Positions 4,579 to 10,800 of a stretch of 64,000 nucleotides of DNA are shown one piece after another (within the stretch, counting starts at the first letter, position 1; each line of letters opens with the position of its first letter). The notes under the pieces were generated by a model. That model ran no database searches. It saw only the letters and a list, made by a program, of their open reading frames with translations, and was not told where the DNA came from. The position numbers and the translations under genes are program-made. The stretch is from positions 2,688,001 through 2,752,000 of the forward strand of contig OY970223.1 of the NCBI GenBank assembly GCA_963714015.1. The letters run 5' to 3'. Origin of the DNA: Vulcanimicrobiota bacterium. GTDB lineage: Bacteria; Vulcanimicrobiota; Vulcanimicrobiia; Vulcanimicrobiales; Vulcanimicrobiaceae.

Positions 4579-4860
4579 TCAGGCGACTTCCGGTCTGAAG
4601 GACGTGAAAGTGCCGTCAGCGTTTCGCACGTATGGCCAGCCGTAGACGACGGCTTCATAGGGCCCGCCGGTCTGCGGCGGCTCGGACGCGACTTCCATCG
4701 CGACGTCATGCAGGTTCGCAGCGGCGTCAAGAACGCCGAGCAGGTTCCCATTGGGATTCGGTGTAGACTGGTGTTGCATCGTACGCTCCTTTACAGCGGT
4801 GATGCGAAGCGGCGTAGCGTTGACAGACGTTGCGCCGTTCTGATTTTGAAAGGTGATCAT
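4579..4860 (-). CDS. Phage hypothetical protein
   Basis: ORF in tightly packed early operon. Confidence 0.5.
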   Translation of the reverse strand: MITFQNQNGATSVNATPLRITAVKERTMQHQSTPNPNGNLLGVLDAAANLHDVAMEVASEPPQTGGPYEAVVYGWPYVRNADGTFTSFRPEVA

Positions 4861-4985
4861 GCCGCGTCGGACTCGCGCCGGCGCCGTTCGTTATTCAGGT
4901 CCGCGCGCTCGAGTGCGTACAGGACGGAGACCGCTTCAGTGCTGTCATCCAGCACGATCGGAGCCGGCGTAACCGCGTCGTTCAT
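4857..4985 (-). CDS. Small phage hypothetical protein (42 aa)
   Basis: MNDAVTPAPIVLDD...; ATGA overlaps at both ends. Confidence 0.45.
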   Translation of the reverse strand: MNDAVTPAPIVLDDSTEAVSVLYALERADLNNERRRRESDAA

Positions 4986-5226: not shown

Positions 5227-5427
5227 CTAGGCCACTGCCCCCAACGTAAGGCTACGAAAGCGCTCGGATGCTTTCTGCAGTGTTATTACCGCGTCGCCCG
5301 GCATACGGCTCGCACCATCTTGCCAGCGCTTTACGGTGTTTGCGGAGCGGCCGGTGAGGACCGCCACGTACTCGTCCGACCAGCCTTCGTGCTGTTGGGT
5401 CTGGGCGAGCGCGTCTTTCAGTTCCAT
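5227..5427 (-). CDS. Cro-like HTH protein
   Basis: 66 aa, VAVLTGRSANTVKRW helix-turn-helix; divergent from the repressor. Confidence 0.7.
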   Translation of the reverse strand: MELKDALAQTQQHEGWSDEYVAVLTGRSANTVKRWQDGASRMPGDAVITLQKASERFRSLTLGAVA

Positions 5428-5436
5428 CGTAAGGCT

Positions 5437-5486
5437 ATGTTACAGAAATGTTCACCCTTTTGTCAACACTAATGTAAACATTTCTG
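5437..5486. promoter_or_regulatory. Lysis/lysogeny switch: leftward sigma70 promoter and inverted operator pair
   Basis: Minus-strand TTGACA (5461-5466)-18 bp-TAACAT (5437-5442); inverted repeats CAGAAATGTTCAC (5443-5455) and GTAAACATTTCTG (5474-5486), one mismatch. Confidence 0.7.
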
Positions 5487-5498
5487 GGGTAGCCTGAA

Positions 5499-5846
5499 GT
5501 GGTGACAGAGACGTTTTCAGAGCGCCTCGCTCGGTTATGTCAAGAGGCCGGAGTCAGTAAAACCGAACTTGCCACGATTTTGGAGGTCAGCGAAAACCAA
5601 GCAAGACGCATCCTTGATGGAACCACCCAAAGCCTGAAGCTGCTGCCTGCTTGGCGGCTCTCAAAACGCCTGGGGATCACCCTCTCCGCACTAGTCGGCG
5701 AATCTCCCGAGGACGCTACGCGATCCATCGACCGGGACGCGCTGATCGCGTTGGGGGGCATGAATCTTGTTCAGGCGCTGCGAGAGTTGCAATCTCGCGT
5801 TGAATCTCTTGAAGAACGGAGCCGCAAGACTGACCTAAAAGCGTGA
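5499..5846 (+). CDS. CI-like XRE-family repressor
   Basis: FSERLARL...SKTELATILEVSENQARRI HTH; no obvious S24 peptidase domain. Confidence 0.8.
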   Translation: MVTETFSERLARLCQEAGVSKTELATILEVSENQARRILDGTTQSLKLLPAWRLSKRLGITLSALVGESPEDATRSIDRDALIALGGMNLVQALRELQSRVESLEERSRKTDLKA

Positions 5847-5910
5847 ACGCAAACTCTGCCACATCGAGGCGGTCGGTCATCTTCTTTACGTTCCTTACCG
5901 GAGGGTGTCC

Positions 5911-6663
5911 ATGGGAGCATTTCTTGAATTCGTTGGTTGCGTTTGCATCTGCTGGACCATTTTCGCGAGTAGTGCGCGTCCAGAACGGCTACGATTCGTC
6001 GTCGGTTTCGTCGGCGCGTTGCTCGCCGCAATGGGCCTCGGCTTAGACCCACCAAACGCCGCAGTCTGGCTCATTCTTTTCGGAGTGCTCTTCGCCGGCC
6101 TGGGCATTGCGAAAAAGGGATATCGCGCCGCCGGAATAGGTAGTGGGCTCGTGTTGCTGGTTATCGGCGCAAGCTTCATGCCGGGCACGTCGAGATCGCA
6201 GCGCACTGCCGTGGCCGCAGCGCCGTCACCCGCTCCGGTACATGCATTCAAAGCAGCGCCAACACCTCGCCCAACGCGCTCGCCCAAACCGACGCCTCCT
6301 CCTCCGCCGCCGACGCCAACGCCAAATCCGATATTACAAGAGAAGCACGACTTCATCGCAAGCGTCGACGAATCGATCTCAGGCCCGATGATCGAAGGTA
6401 ATCCGTACAAGTACGTTGGCGATAACGTCGACCTGCGCTGCACGGTAGAGAATATTCCAGATCCGTCGATGTTCAATGCTGCGTGCGGCCAGGACGACGA
6501 CGGCACCGACGCGATCATCGTTGTGCAATATGACGACACGTCCAGCTTGGACAAAGGGCAGTCGGTGCGCGTGCTCGGAACCGTCGTAACTCCGATGCAA
6601 GGAACAAACGCCATGGGCGGGTCGATGAACTTCCCGACCGTCGAAGCGCATTTTATGGAATAA
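5911..6663 (+). CDS. Membrane protein with Pro-rich linker and extracellular OB-fold-like domain
   Basis: About four N-terminal TM segments, PTPRPTRSPKPTPPPPPP linker, NPYKYVGDNV...GQSVRVLGTV. Confidence 0.7.
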   Translation: MGAFLEFVGCVCICWTIFASSARPERLRFVVGFVGALLAAMGLGLDPPNAAVWLILFGVLFAGLGIAKKGYRAAGIGSGLVLLVIGASFMPGTSRSQRTAVAAAPSPAPVHAFKAAPTPRPTRSPKPTPPPPPPTPTPNPILQEKHDFIASVDESISGPMIEGNPYKYVGDNVDLRCTVENIPDPSMFNAACGQDDDGTDAIIVVQYDDTSSLDKGQSVRVLGTVVTPMQGTNAMGGSMNFPTVEAHFME

Positions 6664-6675
6664 CGCGCTCCATAG

Positions 6676-6701
6676 CAAAAAGCGCCTCCAACGGATGCGC
6701 G
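6676..6701 (-). terminator. Putative intrinsic terminator for a leftward transcript
   Basis: Minus strand GCGCATCC-GTT-GGAGGCGC followed by TTTTT. Confidence 0.45.
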
Positions 6702-6793
6702 AGCTCGTTCCCTCATTATGGCGATTATCGGCTAGCCAATCCGCTAGCGCAAGAGTACTTTTTGGATCACCTTATCCACAGCCGCAATGCATC

Positions 6794-6809
6794 TGGGTAC
6801 TTTTGTACC
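6794..6809. promoter_or_regulatory. Palindromic box TGGGTACTTTTGTACC, copy 1
   Basis: Exact 16-bp repeat of 8654-8669; GGTAC-N4-GTACC dyad. Confidence 0.65.
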
Positions 6810-6875
6810 GCACTCTGTCACCGCTTCGTTTGTATCTGTCACCGTTTCACGGTATCGGCGCAGACCGTAAGATCG

Positions 6876-8406
6876 TCAATCGTAACTTTCGTCACCGTAG
6901 TTAACTAGAAGATCGCGCGTCGTCTTGGCGCCGAGACTTCCGCAAAACCGTGACCGTTCGATTGCGCACCGTATTCTCGCTGATATTGAGGTCCGCGGCG
7001 ATCGCCGCCCGGTTCTTGCCCTTGAGAATCATCACGAAGATTTCGCGTTCGCGTTCGGAGAGCGTCTGCAAACGCGGATCGGAGAGCCGTTCCTGATGAC
7101 GGTCGACGAGCCGGCGGAACCAGATATGGGGGAAATTCGCGTCGATCGTCTTGGCCGCGTACTCGAGCAGGCCGTCTTTGTGCTCCATTTCGCCGAGGTG
7201 AATCGCGGCCAGCGATGCCCGCCACAAGAACCCGATCGATCTCCAGGTGCGCCAGGCCGATTCGATATGCTGCGTTGCGGCGCTACGGTCTCCGTTCGAG
7301 CGCTCGACAACGCCGCTCGTGTAATCAATCAGTGCACGGATGCGCAGGTCCGGACGCGAGAAGGCGAGCAGCGGATATGCGGACGTCTTGATCTCGGCGT
7401 ACTTGTCCAAGAAGAACTTCGATCTCGTTGGATTCTTCGGCGCCGTCAACTCCGCCGCGAGTAAGAGCGCAGCTCGTTCATCACCGATGACCGTATCCCA
7501 ATCAATGGGCGCAAGGAGCGCTTCGGCTTCACGCAAGCAATGCTCGGAGAACGCCGCTTCGTTCAGCCCCGCGGCCAAATATGCGCGGTCAAGGAACGTT
7601 AGCGCACGTAACGCCGGCTTCGGCGCAACGGAAGCCGACTTCGAAAAGAAGTCATACGCCGTTGGTCCCTGCCCGGCAGTCGCGTAAAACCACGCGATAT
7701 TGCGTAGCGTCTGACACTGCTGCGCCGCAACGGAGGGAACCCATGGGACGTGCGCCGCTTTCGCCTCGACGTAGCAAGCCAGATCCGCACTGTCGAGCTC
7801 GCGCGCGAGCGCAGAAAGCGTTTGCACGCACCACGCCGCCATCCATACGTCGTACGCTGGTTCGCGAAAGAGCAAATCGATTGCGTCACGCAGATGAGCG
7901 ATCTGCTTGGTGAAATGCCCGCGCACCCCGGCGAGTCCAGCCAGCAACTCGAAACGTCGCGCCGGTTCAAATTCTACGACGGCAGGCTCGTTGAGCAGTT
8001 GCTCTGCGTCCGAATAATTGCCGAGCACCCAATGCGTGAGTGCTTCTTGATAGCACGCCTCGCCAAGAGCCGCACGATCGTCGAATTGCATCGCGTACCG
8101 GCGTGCCGCAGTGTGAACGAGCAGACCGTCTTTCGTCATATCCGAGCGGCACATTGCTGCGCCTAGCAGTGCAAGCGGGCGCGGTTTTTGCTCGAGCGGC
8201 AGATCGTTTACGAAAAAATAAAACCCCGACTGCAGCAGATCGACGTGCTTCCCAAGGCGCATGAAAATGCGCGCTCGCAGCATGCGCGCTTCAAGGCGCG
8301 AATCGTCGTGCGTAGCGGTAAGGCATTCATCGAATCGGGCTTGCTGGAACAAACGGCTTGCGTCGTCCGCCGAGTACCCGACCTTGGCGTTAGTCGTCGG
8401 TAACAT
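6876..8406 (-). CDS. TPR-like alpha-helical regulator with C-terminal LuxR-type HTH (candidate peptide receptor)
   Basis: LSEREREIFVMILKGKNRAAIAADLNISENTVRNR LuxR motif after ~430 aa of helical repeats. As given the ORF stops at 6901; a 1-bp correction gives ...KLGAKTTRDLL...YD* ending at 6876. Confidence 0.8.
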
Positions 8407-8407
8407 A

Positions 8408-8455
8408 GAAAAGATGGGGCACGATCTGTAGTATAGACCGTGCCCCCGCTCTTTT
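8408..8455 (-). terminator. Terminator-like hairpin between peptide and regulator genes
   Basis: Minus strand GGGGCACGGTCTATA-C-TACAGATCGTGCCCC followed by ATCTTTTCT and then the regulator ATG. Confidence 0.5.
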
Positions 8456-8477
8456 GAGAAATCAATCCGTAAATCTT

Positions 8478-8622
8478 TTAGCCGCCGCCGATTCCGCCCC
8501 CATTGTCAGCCGGCGGAGGTGTCGGTTGCGACGTGGCGTTGATCGTCACGTTCGCTGATGGCGGTTGAATCGGTGACAGAGCAAAAGACTAAACTGAGCA
8601 GCACGCCAAGAATGTAGATCAC
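8478..8622 (-). CDS. Small secreted peptide precursor (candidate signalling pro-peptide)
   Basis: AAGGAG RBS, GTG at 8622, hydrophobic MIYILGVLLSLVF. As given, 38 aa (stop at 8506); deleting one base of the A4 run at 8583-8586 gives 47 aa ending ...TSQPTPPPADNGGGIGGG*. Confidence 0.65.
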
Positions 8623-8653
8623 CGTAGGCTCCTTTGCAGACAAAAGTCGCTAG

Positions 8654-8669
8654 TGGGTACTTTTGTACC
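8654..8669. promoter_or_regulatory. Palindromic box TGGGTACTTTTGTACC, copy 2
   Basis: Lies between the divergent peptide and integrase starts; identical to 6794-6809. Confidence 0.65.
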
Positions 8670-8734
8670 TAGCACGTTGCTTCGCGGCGCATGTGTCAGT
8701 GCCCTGAGATCGTCGGACGATCTTTACGCAAGCG

Positions 8735-10317
8735 GTGACAGAGCGGACGGAGGTCCCGCGCAACGCGTGGAAGGGCACTGCCCCAATCGTGAAGTTGAAA
8801 AAGAGCGGCCAACTGCAAGGTCACGCGGCATGGGCCTATTTGGTCGTCAGCTCCGAGCAGCAAGCCGATACGCTCGACGATCAGCAGGCGTGGGCAGATC
8901 GCACCGCGCGCGCGCACGGCTGGGAGATCACGCGCTGGTTCAAGGACACGTCGACCGGCAAATCCGGCGCGCGCAAGCTGCTCGATGATCTCGTCGAAGC
9001 ACTGCGCGCCATGAAACCCGCCGAACGCCCAGCACGCGTGCTGATGACGCGCCTCGATCGCCTCGGGCGCGGCGATGGCCTCGAGCCCATCGAATACTTT
9101 GCGAAGATCCGTACGCTCGGCCCGGTAATTCATACCAGGGAAGACGGCGACAACGCGATCCATCGCGCGAGCGATGCGCTCAAGCCGATCCTGCGCGTCC
9201 TTACCGGTGCGCTCGAAAACGAAGCGCGTCGCGATAAGATGATCGAGAAGTGGCGGAACTGGAAAGCCGGCGGCCGCAAAGGTCTGCTCCGGCCCTACGG
9301 TATCGCTACTGACGAGCATGGCCATGACGTTGCCCTCGAGCCCCAAGCGGAGTTCGTCAGGAAGGCGTTTCAGCTGCGCGTCCAAGGGCTCGGGCACGTG
9401 GCGATAGGCAACTACCTACGCGAACACGCGCCGCCGATGATCTACAAAAACCCGCGCAAGAAACTCTCCGAGCATCGCATGCGCTGGACGCGCGGGAGCG
9501 TTCCGCAGATGCTGCGCAACGAAGCCTACCGGGGCGTTGTCGTCGACGAGGCGCTCTGGGATGAAGTGCAATTCGTACAGCGGTGGGTTCCGCCCAAAAA
9601 GACGGTCAAGTGGGAATGGCCGCTCTCCGGAACGCTCCGGTGTTACTGCGGGTACAGCATGACCGGTCAAGCCTCCGGTGGCAGCTGCAACCGCTGCAAA
9701 GGGCGCGACCATCGGCATGAGCGCGTTCGCTATTATGTCTGCTCTGAGCGTACGCACGTCGGCGTCGAGCCAACGCGTTCGAATCAAGGACCGCCAACCT
9801 CAAGTAAACCGCATTCGCGTTTCGTGCGGGCCGATTTACTCGAAGAGAAGTTCGCCGATCTGTTGAAGCAGATGGCCGGCTCCCGCAGCTCGTCGCACGA
9901 TTCGCGTCCGAGAAACGGTTGTCAGCGCGATCGCGACAAGCGCTCGAGGACCGTGTGCGCAAATTGGGCGACGTCGTCGCCGGCGCCGAACTACGCCGCG
10001 AACGCGTTTGGGCACTACACGAAAAGGGACACGTGCGGGACGAGGATCTACAGCAACGCCTCGACGCGATCTCCGTGGAAACCGGTGCGGCTAAGCAGGA
10101 ACTTACGCGGCTACGGGCCGAGATCGCGCAGCAGGAACGCATCGGCGGTGCCGCCCGGAGCGCCCTCGAAATGCTTCGGCGCGCGGCGCAGATTTGGGCC
10201 GATGCGGACGTTGAGGACAGGCAATTCATTGCAACCGCAGTCGCTCGATATTGCGGCGGATTGACGGTAACGGCGGATGGAACGCTGCAACCGGGACGCC
10301 TCGTCCAGACCGCTTAA
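8735..10317 (+). CDS. Large serine recombinase (phage integrase), frameshifted near 9880
   Basis: Resolvase domain (AYLVVSSEQQ, STG, TRLDRLGR), recombinase domain (PYG, LRNEAYRG), Zn ribbon (LSGTLRCYCG...YYVC), coiled-coil C-terminus in ORF 9919-10317. Confidence 0.9.
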
Positions 10318-10332
10318 AAGCGAACAAGAGTT

Positions 10333-10348
10333 CGTTCCACGTGAAACG
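10333..10348. promoter_or_regulatory. parS-like palindrome CGTTCCACGTGAAACG
   Basis: One mismatch to the GTTTCACGTGAAAC parS core. Confidence 0.5.
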
Positions 10349-10501
10349 GTGACAGAGTGTGGTCTCCTCCGAATTGCCGCCAGCGTACTTGACTTTGAAA
10401 ACATGCGCGAGATCAATACGCTTCGCGACGTTCAGATGGCGCAGCGTAAAGCAGACAACTCCATTACGAAGAAATTCATCCAGTCGATCGCGGAAGACTA
10501 A
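10349..10501 (+). pseudogene. 3' remnant of a small host gene probably interrupted by the prophage (possible phage-supplied GTG at 10349)
   Basis: MREINTLRDVQMAQRKADNSITKKFIQSI aligns by eye with the C-terminus of the downstream 99-aa ORF but has no matching N-terminus. Confidence 0.55.
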
Positions 10502-10800
10502 TGCGCGCGGAGAGTGTTTCATCGAGCCGGCCGGGTGTGGGAAAAACGAGCGCCGGCAAGACCGCGGCTTCCAAGGCGCCGGACGCGGACGCAGCGTCCG
10601 CGCTAACCGACGGGATGGATCGCGAGCAGGCTAAGGAAGTCCGCCTCGAGCTGCTTCTGCAGCGCCAGCGCGACCGCTTCGACTTTCAGACCGAGGAGCG
10701 CACGGAACTCGAACGCGAGTACAATACGATGCGAGATATGATGCTCGCGCAGGAGAAAAACGACGACGAGATCGTCAAGAAGTACGTCGCGATGATTTAG
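10501..10800 (+). CDS. Hypothetical coiled-coil protein
   Basis: 99-aa ORF, TAATG overlap with the upstream remnant. Confidence 0.7.
   Translation: MRAESVSSSRPGVGKTSAGKTAASKAPDADAASALTDGMDREQAKEVRLELLLQRQRDRFDFQTEERTELEREYNTMRDMMLAQEKNDDEIVKKYVAMI

Follow-up and report, generated by a model that had tools for sequence, protein, structure and literature searches.

Organization of the locus

The window analysed here is the 64,000-nt stretch G000:C1:2688001-2752000, G000 being the genome under study, a member of the Vulcanimicrobiota. Its left part holds the lysogeny genes of a prophage: a cro-like gene, a cI-like repressor gene, a membrane-protein-like open reading frame (ORF; orf5905), a gene for a TPR-LuxR regulator, a small peptide ORF and the gene of a large serine integrase (int), which is followed by the right attachment site, attR. 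An asymmetric DNA word of 15 nt was found in eight copies in this genome, confined to the lysogeny genes and to both attachment-site flanks of this one prophage. A preliminary description of the sequence had proposed that several of these copies are the targets of an antisense RNA. Analysed in full, the set looks more like the binding sites of a regulator, and we lean towards operator-type sites recognized by a phage-encoded protein.

Copies, conservation and placement of the motif

The 10-mer GGTGACAGAG has seven exact copies in the 3,562,638-bp genome, and the reversed control word has none. Within the window it lies on the plus strand at 5501-5510, 8572-8581, 8734-8743 and 10348-10357 and on the minus strand at 6813-6822. 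Two further exact copies, both on the minus strand, were located outside the window at genome positions 2627024 and 2627259, 66 kb leftward, at the left end of the prophage. An eighth copy with one mismatch (9/10), GGTGACAGAT, is present at 6834-6843 on the minus strand, and the set thus comprises four plus and four minus copies. When one mismatch was allowed, seven matches were obtained in the window, one of which (25-34) is unrelated to the motif set; 100 dinucleotide-preserving shuffles of the window gave a mean of 2.27 (standard deviation 1.63, maximum 6) and none of them reached seven. The clustering is real and chance is excluded.

Alignment of the eight copies revealed a conserved unit of 15 nt that begins 5 nt ahead of the 10-mer and reaches its last base, [G/C]AA-N-[C/T]-GGTGACAGA[G/T]. 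The 10-mer is identical in seven of the eight copies and the word is asymmetric, without dyad symmetry. A 16-nt weight matrix scored the eight sites at 20.1-27.6 bits, the next best position in the genome at 16.8 bits and the best other position in the prophage at 16.1 bits. Clusters of rare 10-mers (5-12 copies genome-wide) with at least five copies inside 6 kb were formed by 48 words. All but two of these sets read as regular or short-range tandem arrays, and only the motif and the TTCTGACGTT set are dispersed over kilobases. The latter, the sole other cluster on that scale, consists of seven copies at irregular spacings over 5.6 kb (genome 83612-89214).

The sites were named a to h (Table 1). 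By our own count, seven of the eight lie on a gene boundary or in non-coding DNA, in a stretch that is ~87% coding; the only fully intragenic copy is site b, which spans codons S15-V16-T17 of the minus-strand peptide ORF. The 237-bp gap (6664-6900) in which orf5905 and the TPR-LuxR gene converge with their 3' ends contains palindromic box 1, then site e, then site f. Site f repeats site e directly at a distance of 21 bp, both face the same side of the helix, and the pair adjoins box 1; the remaining sites are single. Direct pairs flank int (c and d) and a gene for a small zinc-ribbon protein at the other prophage end (g and h), and d and g, beyond the ~50-bp attP core, are arranged as an inverted pair. 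Five of the eight sites are co-oriented with the adjacent or containing gene, the opposite orientation being seen for b, g and h.

The copies and reverse-complement copies listed in the preliminary description (at cI, the integrase, the host gene remnant and the peptide gene) were all found at the coordinates given there, and so were the complementarities reported between them. Positions 6813-6826 are a perfect 14-nt complement of 8730-8743, 6835-6851 a perfect 17-nt complement of 10340-10356, and 6813-6827 pair with 5496-5510 over 15 nt with one G:U position. These long matches arise because a single 15-nt consensus sits on both strands. The same is seen for site b, which is not among the proposed targets and has a 15-nt match of 93% to both e and f; for d and e the match covers 21 nt at 90%.

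Table 1. Motif copies and other elements of the lysogeny module (window positions unless given as genome positions)
Feature	Position	Strand	Description
Site a	5496..5510	+	GAAGT-GGTGACAGAG over the only possible start codons of cI (GTG 5499/5502); 25.7 bits
Site e	6813..6827	-	GAAGC-GGTGACAGAG, 3 nt from palindromic box 1; 24.8 bits
Site f	6834..6848	-	GAAAC-GGTGACAGAT, one mismatch, direct repeat of e at 21 bp; 25.6 bits
Site b	8567..8581	+	GAATC-GGTGACAGAG inside the small peptide ORF; 25.8 bits
Site c	8729..8743	+	CAAGC-GGTGACAGAG at GTG 8735, the first one in frame in the integrase ORF; 22.5 bits
Site d	10343..10357	+	GAAAC-GGTGACAGAG, 31 nt past the integrase stop; 27.6 bits
Site g	genome 2627024-2627038	-	Outside the window, just inside attL; starts 24 bp right of the crossover
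Site h	genome 2627259-2627273	-	Outside the window, just inside attL; 235 bp further in than g
attR crossover core (AAC)	10400..10402		Same AAC in attL at genome 2626997-2626999
cro-like helix-turn-helix gene	5227..5427	-	Leading gene of the leftward early operon; Pfam, PHROG
cro-like promoter-like site	5466..5437	-	TTGACA-18-TAACAT; almost no leader left
13-nt inverted repeat	arms 5443-5455 and 5474-5486		92% complementary, straddles the -35 of the cro-like promoter
cI-like repressor gene	5499..5846	+	115 aa; Pfam HTH_31/HTH_3, PHROG transcriptional repressor/regulator families
Membrane-protein-like ORF (orf5905)	5905..6663		
Palindromic box 1	6794..6809		TGGGTACTTTTGTACC
TPR + LuxR/GerE-type regulator gene	6901..8406	-	501 aa; Pfam
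Terminator-like hairpin	8446-8416	-	Past the peptide ORF, ahead of the TPR-LuxR gene
Small peptide ORF	8506..8622	-	38 aa from a GTG with preceding GGAG; signal-peptide-like N-terminus
Palindromic box 2	8654..8669		Same sequence as box 1; separates the peptide gene from int
Large serine recombinase (integrase) gene	8735..10317	+	Pfam Resolvase + Recombinase; PHROG 95

Prophage and attachment site

By a crude ORF call, host genes extend to ~2626600 in the genome and are followed by phage-like genes up to the integrase, giving a prophage of ~71 kb. Among 40 relatives searched with the DNA flanking its ends, seven matched the left flank, and an empty site with abutting left and right flanks was identified in G001, G002, G007, G009, G013, G017 and G022. 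At these junctions an uninterrupted host gene is found (~125 aa in G001). Host-like sequence stops at GAGAAC in attL and restarts at AAC-ATGCGCGAG in attR, and the crossover therefore lies inside AAC. A GCCAG/CTGGC inverted pair ~16-21 bp on either side of the crossover fits the expected ~50-bp attP core. Site d ends 42 bp to the left of the attR crossover. With the crossover placed, all eight sites fall within ~5.2 kb of the circular phage map, with the inverted pair around attP. Some of the genome tallies (the flank search, the count of TPR-LuxR paralogues and that of the degenerate motif in the class) include the unpublished genomes G021, G023, G036, G225, G226, G255, G263, G281, G334 and G348; the attachment-site inference was made without them.

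The host gene split by the prophage has its 5' part at genome 2626702-2626999 and its 3' part at window 10403-10501, and is intact in the seven relatives. In this genome the 5' part shifts frame just before the junction. No Pfam family was matched by the two window ORFs over the 3' part. A tandem paralogue of the gene is located at window 10501-10800. The zinc-ribbon ORF, next to attP and bracketed by g and h, encodes a basic protein of 62 aa with a weak match to DUF2116 in Pfam; its closest Atlas clusters are small viral hypothetical proteins.

Genes and palindromic elements of the lysogeny module

The cI-like protein combines an N-terminal helix-turn-helix with a C-terminal helix. The 13-nt inverted repeat at the cro-like promoter is likely to be the CI/Cro operator pair and does not resemble the motif. 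The 501-aa regulator displays in Pfam a C-terminal GerE/LuxR helix-turn-helix, a sigma-70 region 4 match and a weak TPR_MalT match (21.9 bits, curated cut-off 45); neither an ATPase domain nor an AimR family was found in it by Pfam. Paralogues of this protein are present in 288 of the 385 genomes of the host's class, with identities of 26-34% among the best matches listed. Enrichment of the motif at host TPR-LuxR paralogue loci was considered and rejected (35 matches at up to two mismatches in 82 kb). Upstream of the host paralogue genes at L030, L032, L036, L039 and L042 (~960-1360), tandemly repeated units of ~33-57 nt, in multiples of 3, were observed; this suggests repeat-containing precursor peptides beside TPR-LuxR regulators across the family. 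The integrase is read in two frames that change near 9875-9885, each piece being matched by PHROG 95. The single-contig genome is only 89.6% complete in marker genes, so that the frame change may equally well come from an assembly indel or from a real lesion.

The form GTAC-N4-GTAC has 23 matches in the genome, and the full box sequence occurs only in boxes 1 and 2. Identification of this palindrome as a host SOS box was rejected, as the region upstream of the host lexA carries a GAAC-N4-GTTT-type box instead (GAACATATGTTT). The prophage also encodes a 77-aa protein consisting of a LexA DNA-binding domain only (genome 2687181-2687414, minus strand; Pfam PF01726, 43 bits), which is a candidate for binding the GGTAC-N4-GTACC boxes or the motif. 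At window 10322-10333, between the integrase stop and site d, the sequence GAACAAGAGTTC matches the SOS box form of the host, GAAC-N4-GTTC, perfectly; strict matches to this form number 99 genome-wide and two in the prophage. Eight boxes of the GAAC-N4-GTTC type with the core CAAGTGTTC were seen at L080 (G156:C7:468000-485000) in two clusters (1489-1912 and 4769-4868), 3-6 kb upstream of a related serine integrase, a hint that LexA may directly control prophages in this bacterial family.

The motif and start codons

The motif had been described as lying on the start codons of cI, the integrase and the disrupted host gene. This is upheld for cI, the start of which is limited to GTG 5499 or 5502 because of a stop at 5490-5492 and a helix-turn-helix beginning at residue ~6. 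For the integrase it is doubtful, since GTG 8790 appears more likely as a start than GTG 8735. Alignments with the homologues from 34 other genomes mostly start only at query residue ~12-32, and most of the 20 homologue loci have a candidate start 3-20 residues ahead of a conserved AW-x-Y/L-x-x-VS. The leader before this element would have 31 residues from GTG 8735, and 13 residues, lysine-rich as in the homologue at L071, from GTG 8790. Site c lies 47-60 nt upstream of this likelier start. The third placement is not firm either: GTG 10349 is in frame with the 3' part of the host gene, but lies within an ORF already open from ATG 10277. The motif was also rejected as a promoter or Shine-Dalgarno element, the upstream hexamer being inconsistent and no start codon standing at the right spacing.

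Searches for related loci

No locus related to the TPR-LuxR protein was detected in genome contigs or metagenome contigs, and none related to the integrase or cI in viral contigs. A protein homology search returned no cI homologue at 1e-5. Integrase homologues are encoded in 35 of the 385 genomes of the class (G000 included), at only 34-47% identity. In k-mer screens of 20 integrase-homologue loci no equivalent motif architecture was found; L071 was the only one of them with regulator-like and orf5905-like genes, at ~30% identity.

A degenerate 14-nt form of the motif has six copies in G000. It occurs once each in nine of the 384 other genomes of the class compared with eight matches of the reversed control, which is the chance level. 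A scan for two adjacent copies returned nine viral loci (IMG/VR) and at least 119 metagenome loci; the reversed control gave four viral loci. Screening of 89 of these pattern loci revealed several with 5-18 tandem copies of the 9-mer core GGTGACAGA, and none of the 89 encodes a homologue of any prophage protein. The arrays, which share no proteins with the prophage, were taken as unrelated tandem repeats. Such GGTGACAGA arrays or clusters, with differing flanks and periods, were seen at L136, L165, L163, L151, L182, L108 and others (metagenome and IMG/VR, GC 39-69%).

Operator-type sites as the favoured explanation

We estimate at roughly 55% the probability that the eight copies are operator-type DNA sites of one phage-encoded sequence-specific DNA-binding protein. 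An asymmetric, stoperator-like operator had been named as an alternative in the preliminary description; the asymmetric operator is the part retained here, but the set is no strict stoperator system. The 5-nt upstream conservation is found in all orientations, including copies unable to be targets of a small RNA (sRNA), and therefore matches what is predicted for a DNA recognition site. As the sites are absent from the rest of the 71-kb prophage and from the host genome, a phage factor is favoured over a host one, which is unlikely. The cro-like lytic promoter carries separate 13-nt operators and is touched by no site, and the binder is therefore likelier a second regulator than CI or Cro at their main operators. 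Furthermore, the box abutting e and f recurs at the peptide/int promoter region, which was counted for the operator explanation.

The number, exclusivity, anatomy and placement of the sites are observed; binding by a protein, its identity and the sign of the regulation are inferred from them. The predicted protein would read the 15-bp asymmetric word. It would do so at the borders of every lysogeny transcription unit, i.e. at the cI start, in the peptide/TPR-LuxR unit, in the 5' region and at the 3' end of int and at both ends of the zinc-ribbon gene. Occupancy of the sites would thus set cI, int and the peptide/regulator unit jointly, and the occupied inverted pair around attP would insulate or occlude it. 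DNA-binding candidates besides CI, Cro and the integrase were looked for by Pfam in the 12 lysogeny-module ORFs and a set of 32 ORFs (31 early-region, one left-end), yielding the TPR-LuxR regulator, the 77-aa LexA-domain protein and the zinc-ribbon ORF. Each of these might be the binder, as might a factor in the style of Apl or Cox.

Several points weigh on the other side. There are several candidate binders, and no phage relative was found, so that the explanation is without comparative support. The 10-nt identity in seven of the eight copies is tighter than in many operator sets and fits RNA pairing or recent duplication equally well. The orientation of the sites relative to transcription follows no consistent rule. 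Copies on opposite strands are necessarily complementary, so RNA-level pairing fits the same sequence. A consensus scan of the plus strand at cI and int detected no promoter.

A more far-reaching proposal is that this one word acts as a local master switch, bracketing every lysogeny unit and the attP flanks and sensing integration via DNA loops or RNA stems. The idea of sensing derives from the fact that, on integration, the two sites flanking attP are pulled apart, as are int and the zinc-ribbon gene. We regard it as a tentative idea with the odds clearly against it. If true, the switch would couple cI, int, the peptide/TPR-LuxR signalling unit and the accessibility of attP, which is not described for serine-integrase phages. 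In such phages the control of directionality is thought to use protein-protein contacts and not accessory DNA sites.

Should one factor turn out to act on all eight sites, it would offer a small system, amenable to experiment, in which the repressor, the integrase, a peptide-signalling unit and the attachment site of a serine-integrase phage are controlled together. If the sites are ordinary repressor sites, the result is a routine annotation of an immunity region. The host belongs to a poorly studied bacterial class, and for a prophage of this lineage, where phage genetics hardly exists, the work yields a clean definition of the att site and a predicted operator set.

Alternative explanations

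The same complementary copies could act in cis within RNA. The motif at one end of a transcript would pair with its complement at the other end and sequester the 5' end or the start codon: a with e/f in the cI unit, b with f/e in the minus-strand peptide/LuxR unit, and d with g and c with h in transcripts that read from int through attP. As the d:g stem would form only on unintegrated phage DNA, expression of int and of the zinc-ribbon gene would depend on the integration state in the manner of lambda sib. The four plus and four minus copies indeed bracket each unit with complementary copies. In minimum-free-energy folds, 5496-5509 pair with 6827-6814 in the RNA of 5496-6870, and 8582-8567 pair with 6812-6827 (8570 unpaired) in the minus-strand RNA of 8650-6790; in the fold of a reconstructed attP RNA (z -2.0), G:U pairs lengthen the stem between d and g. 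However, perfect repeats force such pairings, which are hence no proof that the transcripts exist, and opposite orientations for three units have a chance of ~1 in 8. Moreover, the conserved 5' flank of site a lies upstream of GTG 5499/5502 and would require an RNA leader. Cis-acting structures are thus considered unlikely.

A role in recombination was also weighed. The motif would mark the cassette borders of the cI, regulator, int, attP and zinc-ribbon modules, where the serine integrase or a recombination directionality factor (RDF) could use it as an accessory or pseudo-site, or where it could provide short homologies for exchange or inversion of modules. The inverted pair around attP and the direct pairs at int and at the zinc-ribbon gene are in line with this, and site d, with a 17-nt 5' match to f and a match of 21 nt at 90% to e, resembles a hybrid of the two, suggesting past exchange between copies. 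Conversely, the asymmetric sites are without the dyad that a recombinase dimer needs, and the two sites nearest the crossover stand 26-40 and 43-57 bp from it, outside the attP core and asymmetric to it. No second recombinase family was detected by Pfam in the 32 early-region ORFs and the lysogeny-module proteins, the structural region not being scanned. This explanation is judged rather improbable. The narrower proposal of integrase core half-sites was rejected on the same distances and asymmetry.

The weakest of the three is the one originally put forward, a plus-strand, AimX-like sRNA from ~6770-6875 that would use the seeds 6813-6827 and 6835-6851 and block translation of the cI and int mRNAs at their 5' ends. 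Its complementarities of 15 (one G:U), 14 and 17 nt are real, the cI start codon falls within the motif, and the predicted duplexes reach -41.9 to -53.2 kcal/mol (50-nt targets against 6790-6875), though the repeats themselves entail this. Yet a consensus scan of 6664-6900 found no promoter-like or terminator-like site on the plus strand, Rfam gave no match at E<=1 and the fold was not unusual compared with shuffles (z -0.96 and -0.90 for the two strands). Targeting of start codons leaves three of the eight copies (b, g and h) unexplained, the int start is likelier at 8790, and the extended complementarity is equally present in the non-target copy b. The analogy with AimX fares no better, the regulator being not AimR-like (GerE/LuxR with a weak TPR_MalT match) and the peptide gene lying upstream of it, in an order unlike that of arbitrium. 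Silencing of cI and int by such an RNA is therefore very improbable.

Comparison with known systems

The closest parallel to a set of asymmetric operators is offered by the repressors of Cluster A mycobacteriophages, whose targets are asymmetric 13-mers located at promoters and between genes (PMC9283540). The operators and stoperators of L5 gp71 and of the TipsytheTRex repressor resemble the present set in being a short, asymmetric, near-invariant and phage-specific repeated site, found mainly in short gaps between genes and also at a promoter or where a gene starts (PMC9283540). Several features differ. More than 20 sites are spread genome-wide there, whereas here eight lie within ~5.2 kb around attP. 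A site is present at the early lytic promoter there, and here the closest motif is 30 bp upstream of the cro-like -35. Orientation tracks transcription there, in contrast to five of eight here, and the two-domain repressor of 183 aa contrasts with a cI-like protein of 115 aa with one helix-turn-helix. The host here belongs to an unrelated lineage.

Dual excisionase/regulators such as 186 Apl and P2 Cox provide a second model. Apl of phage 186 is reported to bind both att and the lysis-lysogeny switch, so that one small protein couples recombination with repression of the repressor promoter (PMC7498355). Likewise, putative binding sites stand here at att (d and g flanking attP) and at the repressor (a over the cI start). 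The Apl sites are direct repeats one helix turn apart, whereas here only e and f are in tandem, at two turns. The recombinase also differs, being a large serine integrase. Known RDFs of such integrases act on the protein and not on DNA. No Xis-like or excisionase family was found by Pfam in the 12 lysogeny-module ORFs and the set of 32 ORFs scanned.

MalT reads an asymmetric 10-bp box in several copies and orientations. The phage regulator shares with MalT-type regulators a GerE/LuxR helix-turn-helix and the TPR_MalT match. It differs in that this match stays below the cut-off and in that no ATPase domain was found; furthermore, the two identical palindromic boxes are a more obvious LuxR-type target than the motif. 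Similarly, the module recalls the arbitrium system AimR-AimP-AimX by a small secreted-peptide-like ORF beside a TPR regulator in a phage lysogeny module, and by a non-coding region adjoining the putative operator of the regulator. In arbitrium, however, the receptor is a TPR protein with an N-terminal helix-turn-helix, unlike the C-terminal GerE/LuxR domain here. The gene order there is aimR-aimP-aimX, all three on the same strand, and the operator follows aimP, whereas here the peptide ORF is upstream of the regulator and box 1 downstream; and 6664-6900 gave no AimX-like transcript signals in the promoter/terminator scan, Rfam or the fold.

The sib element of lambda is known for the retroregulation of int. 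As there, complementary elements stand on either side of attP, and an RNA hairpin between them could arise only while the phage DNA is unintegrated; here, however, the predicted stem is one pair out of a family of eight copies. Because its sites are few and local, mostly single, without an orientation rule and absent from the lytic promoter, and because it accompanies a serine recombinase, the set belongs neither to the Cluster A stoperators nor to the Apl/Cox regulators, and is filed as a variant phage operator set.

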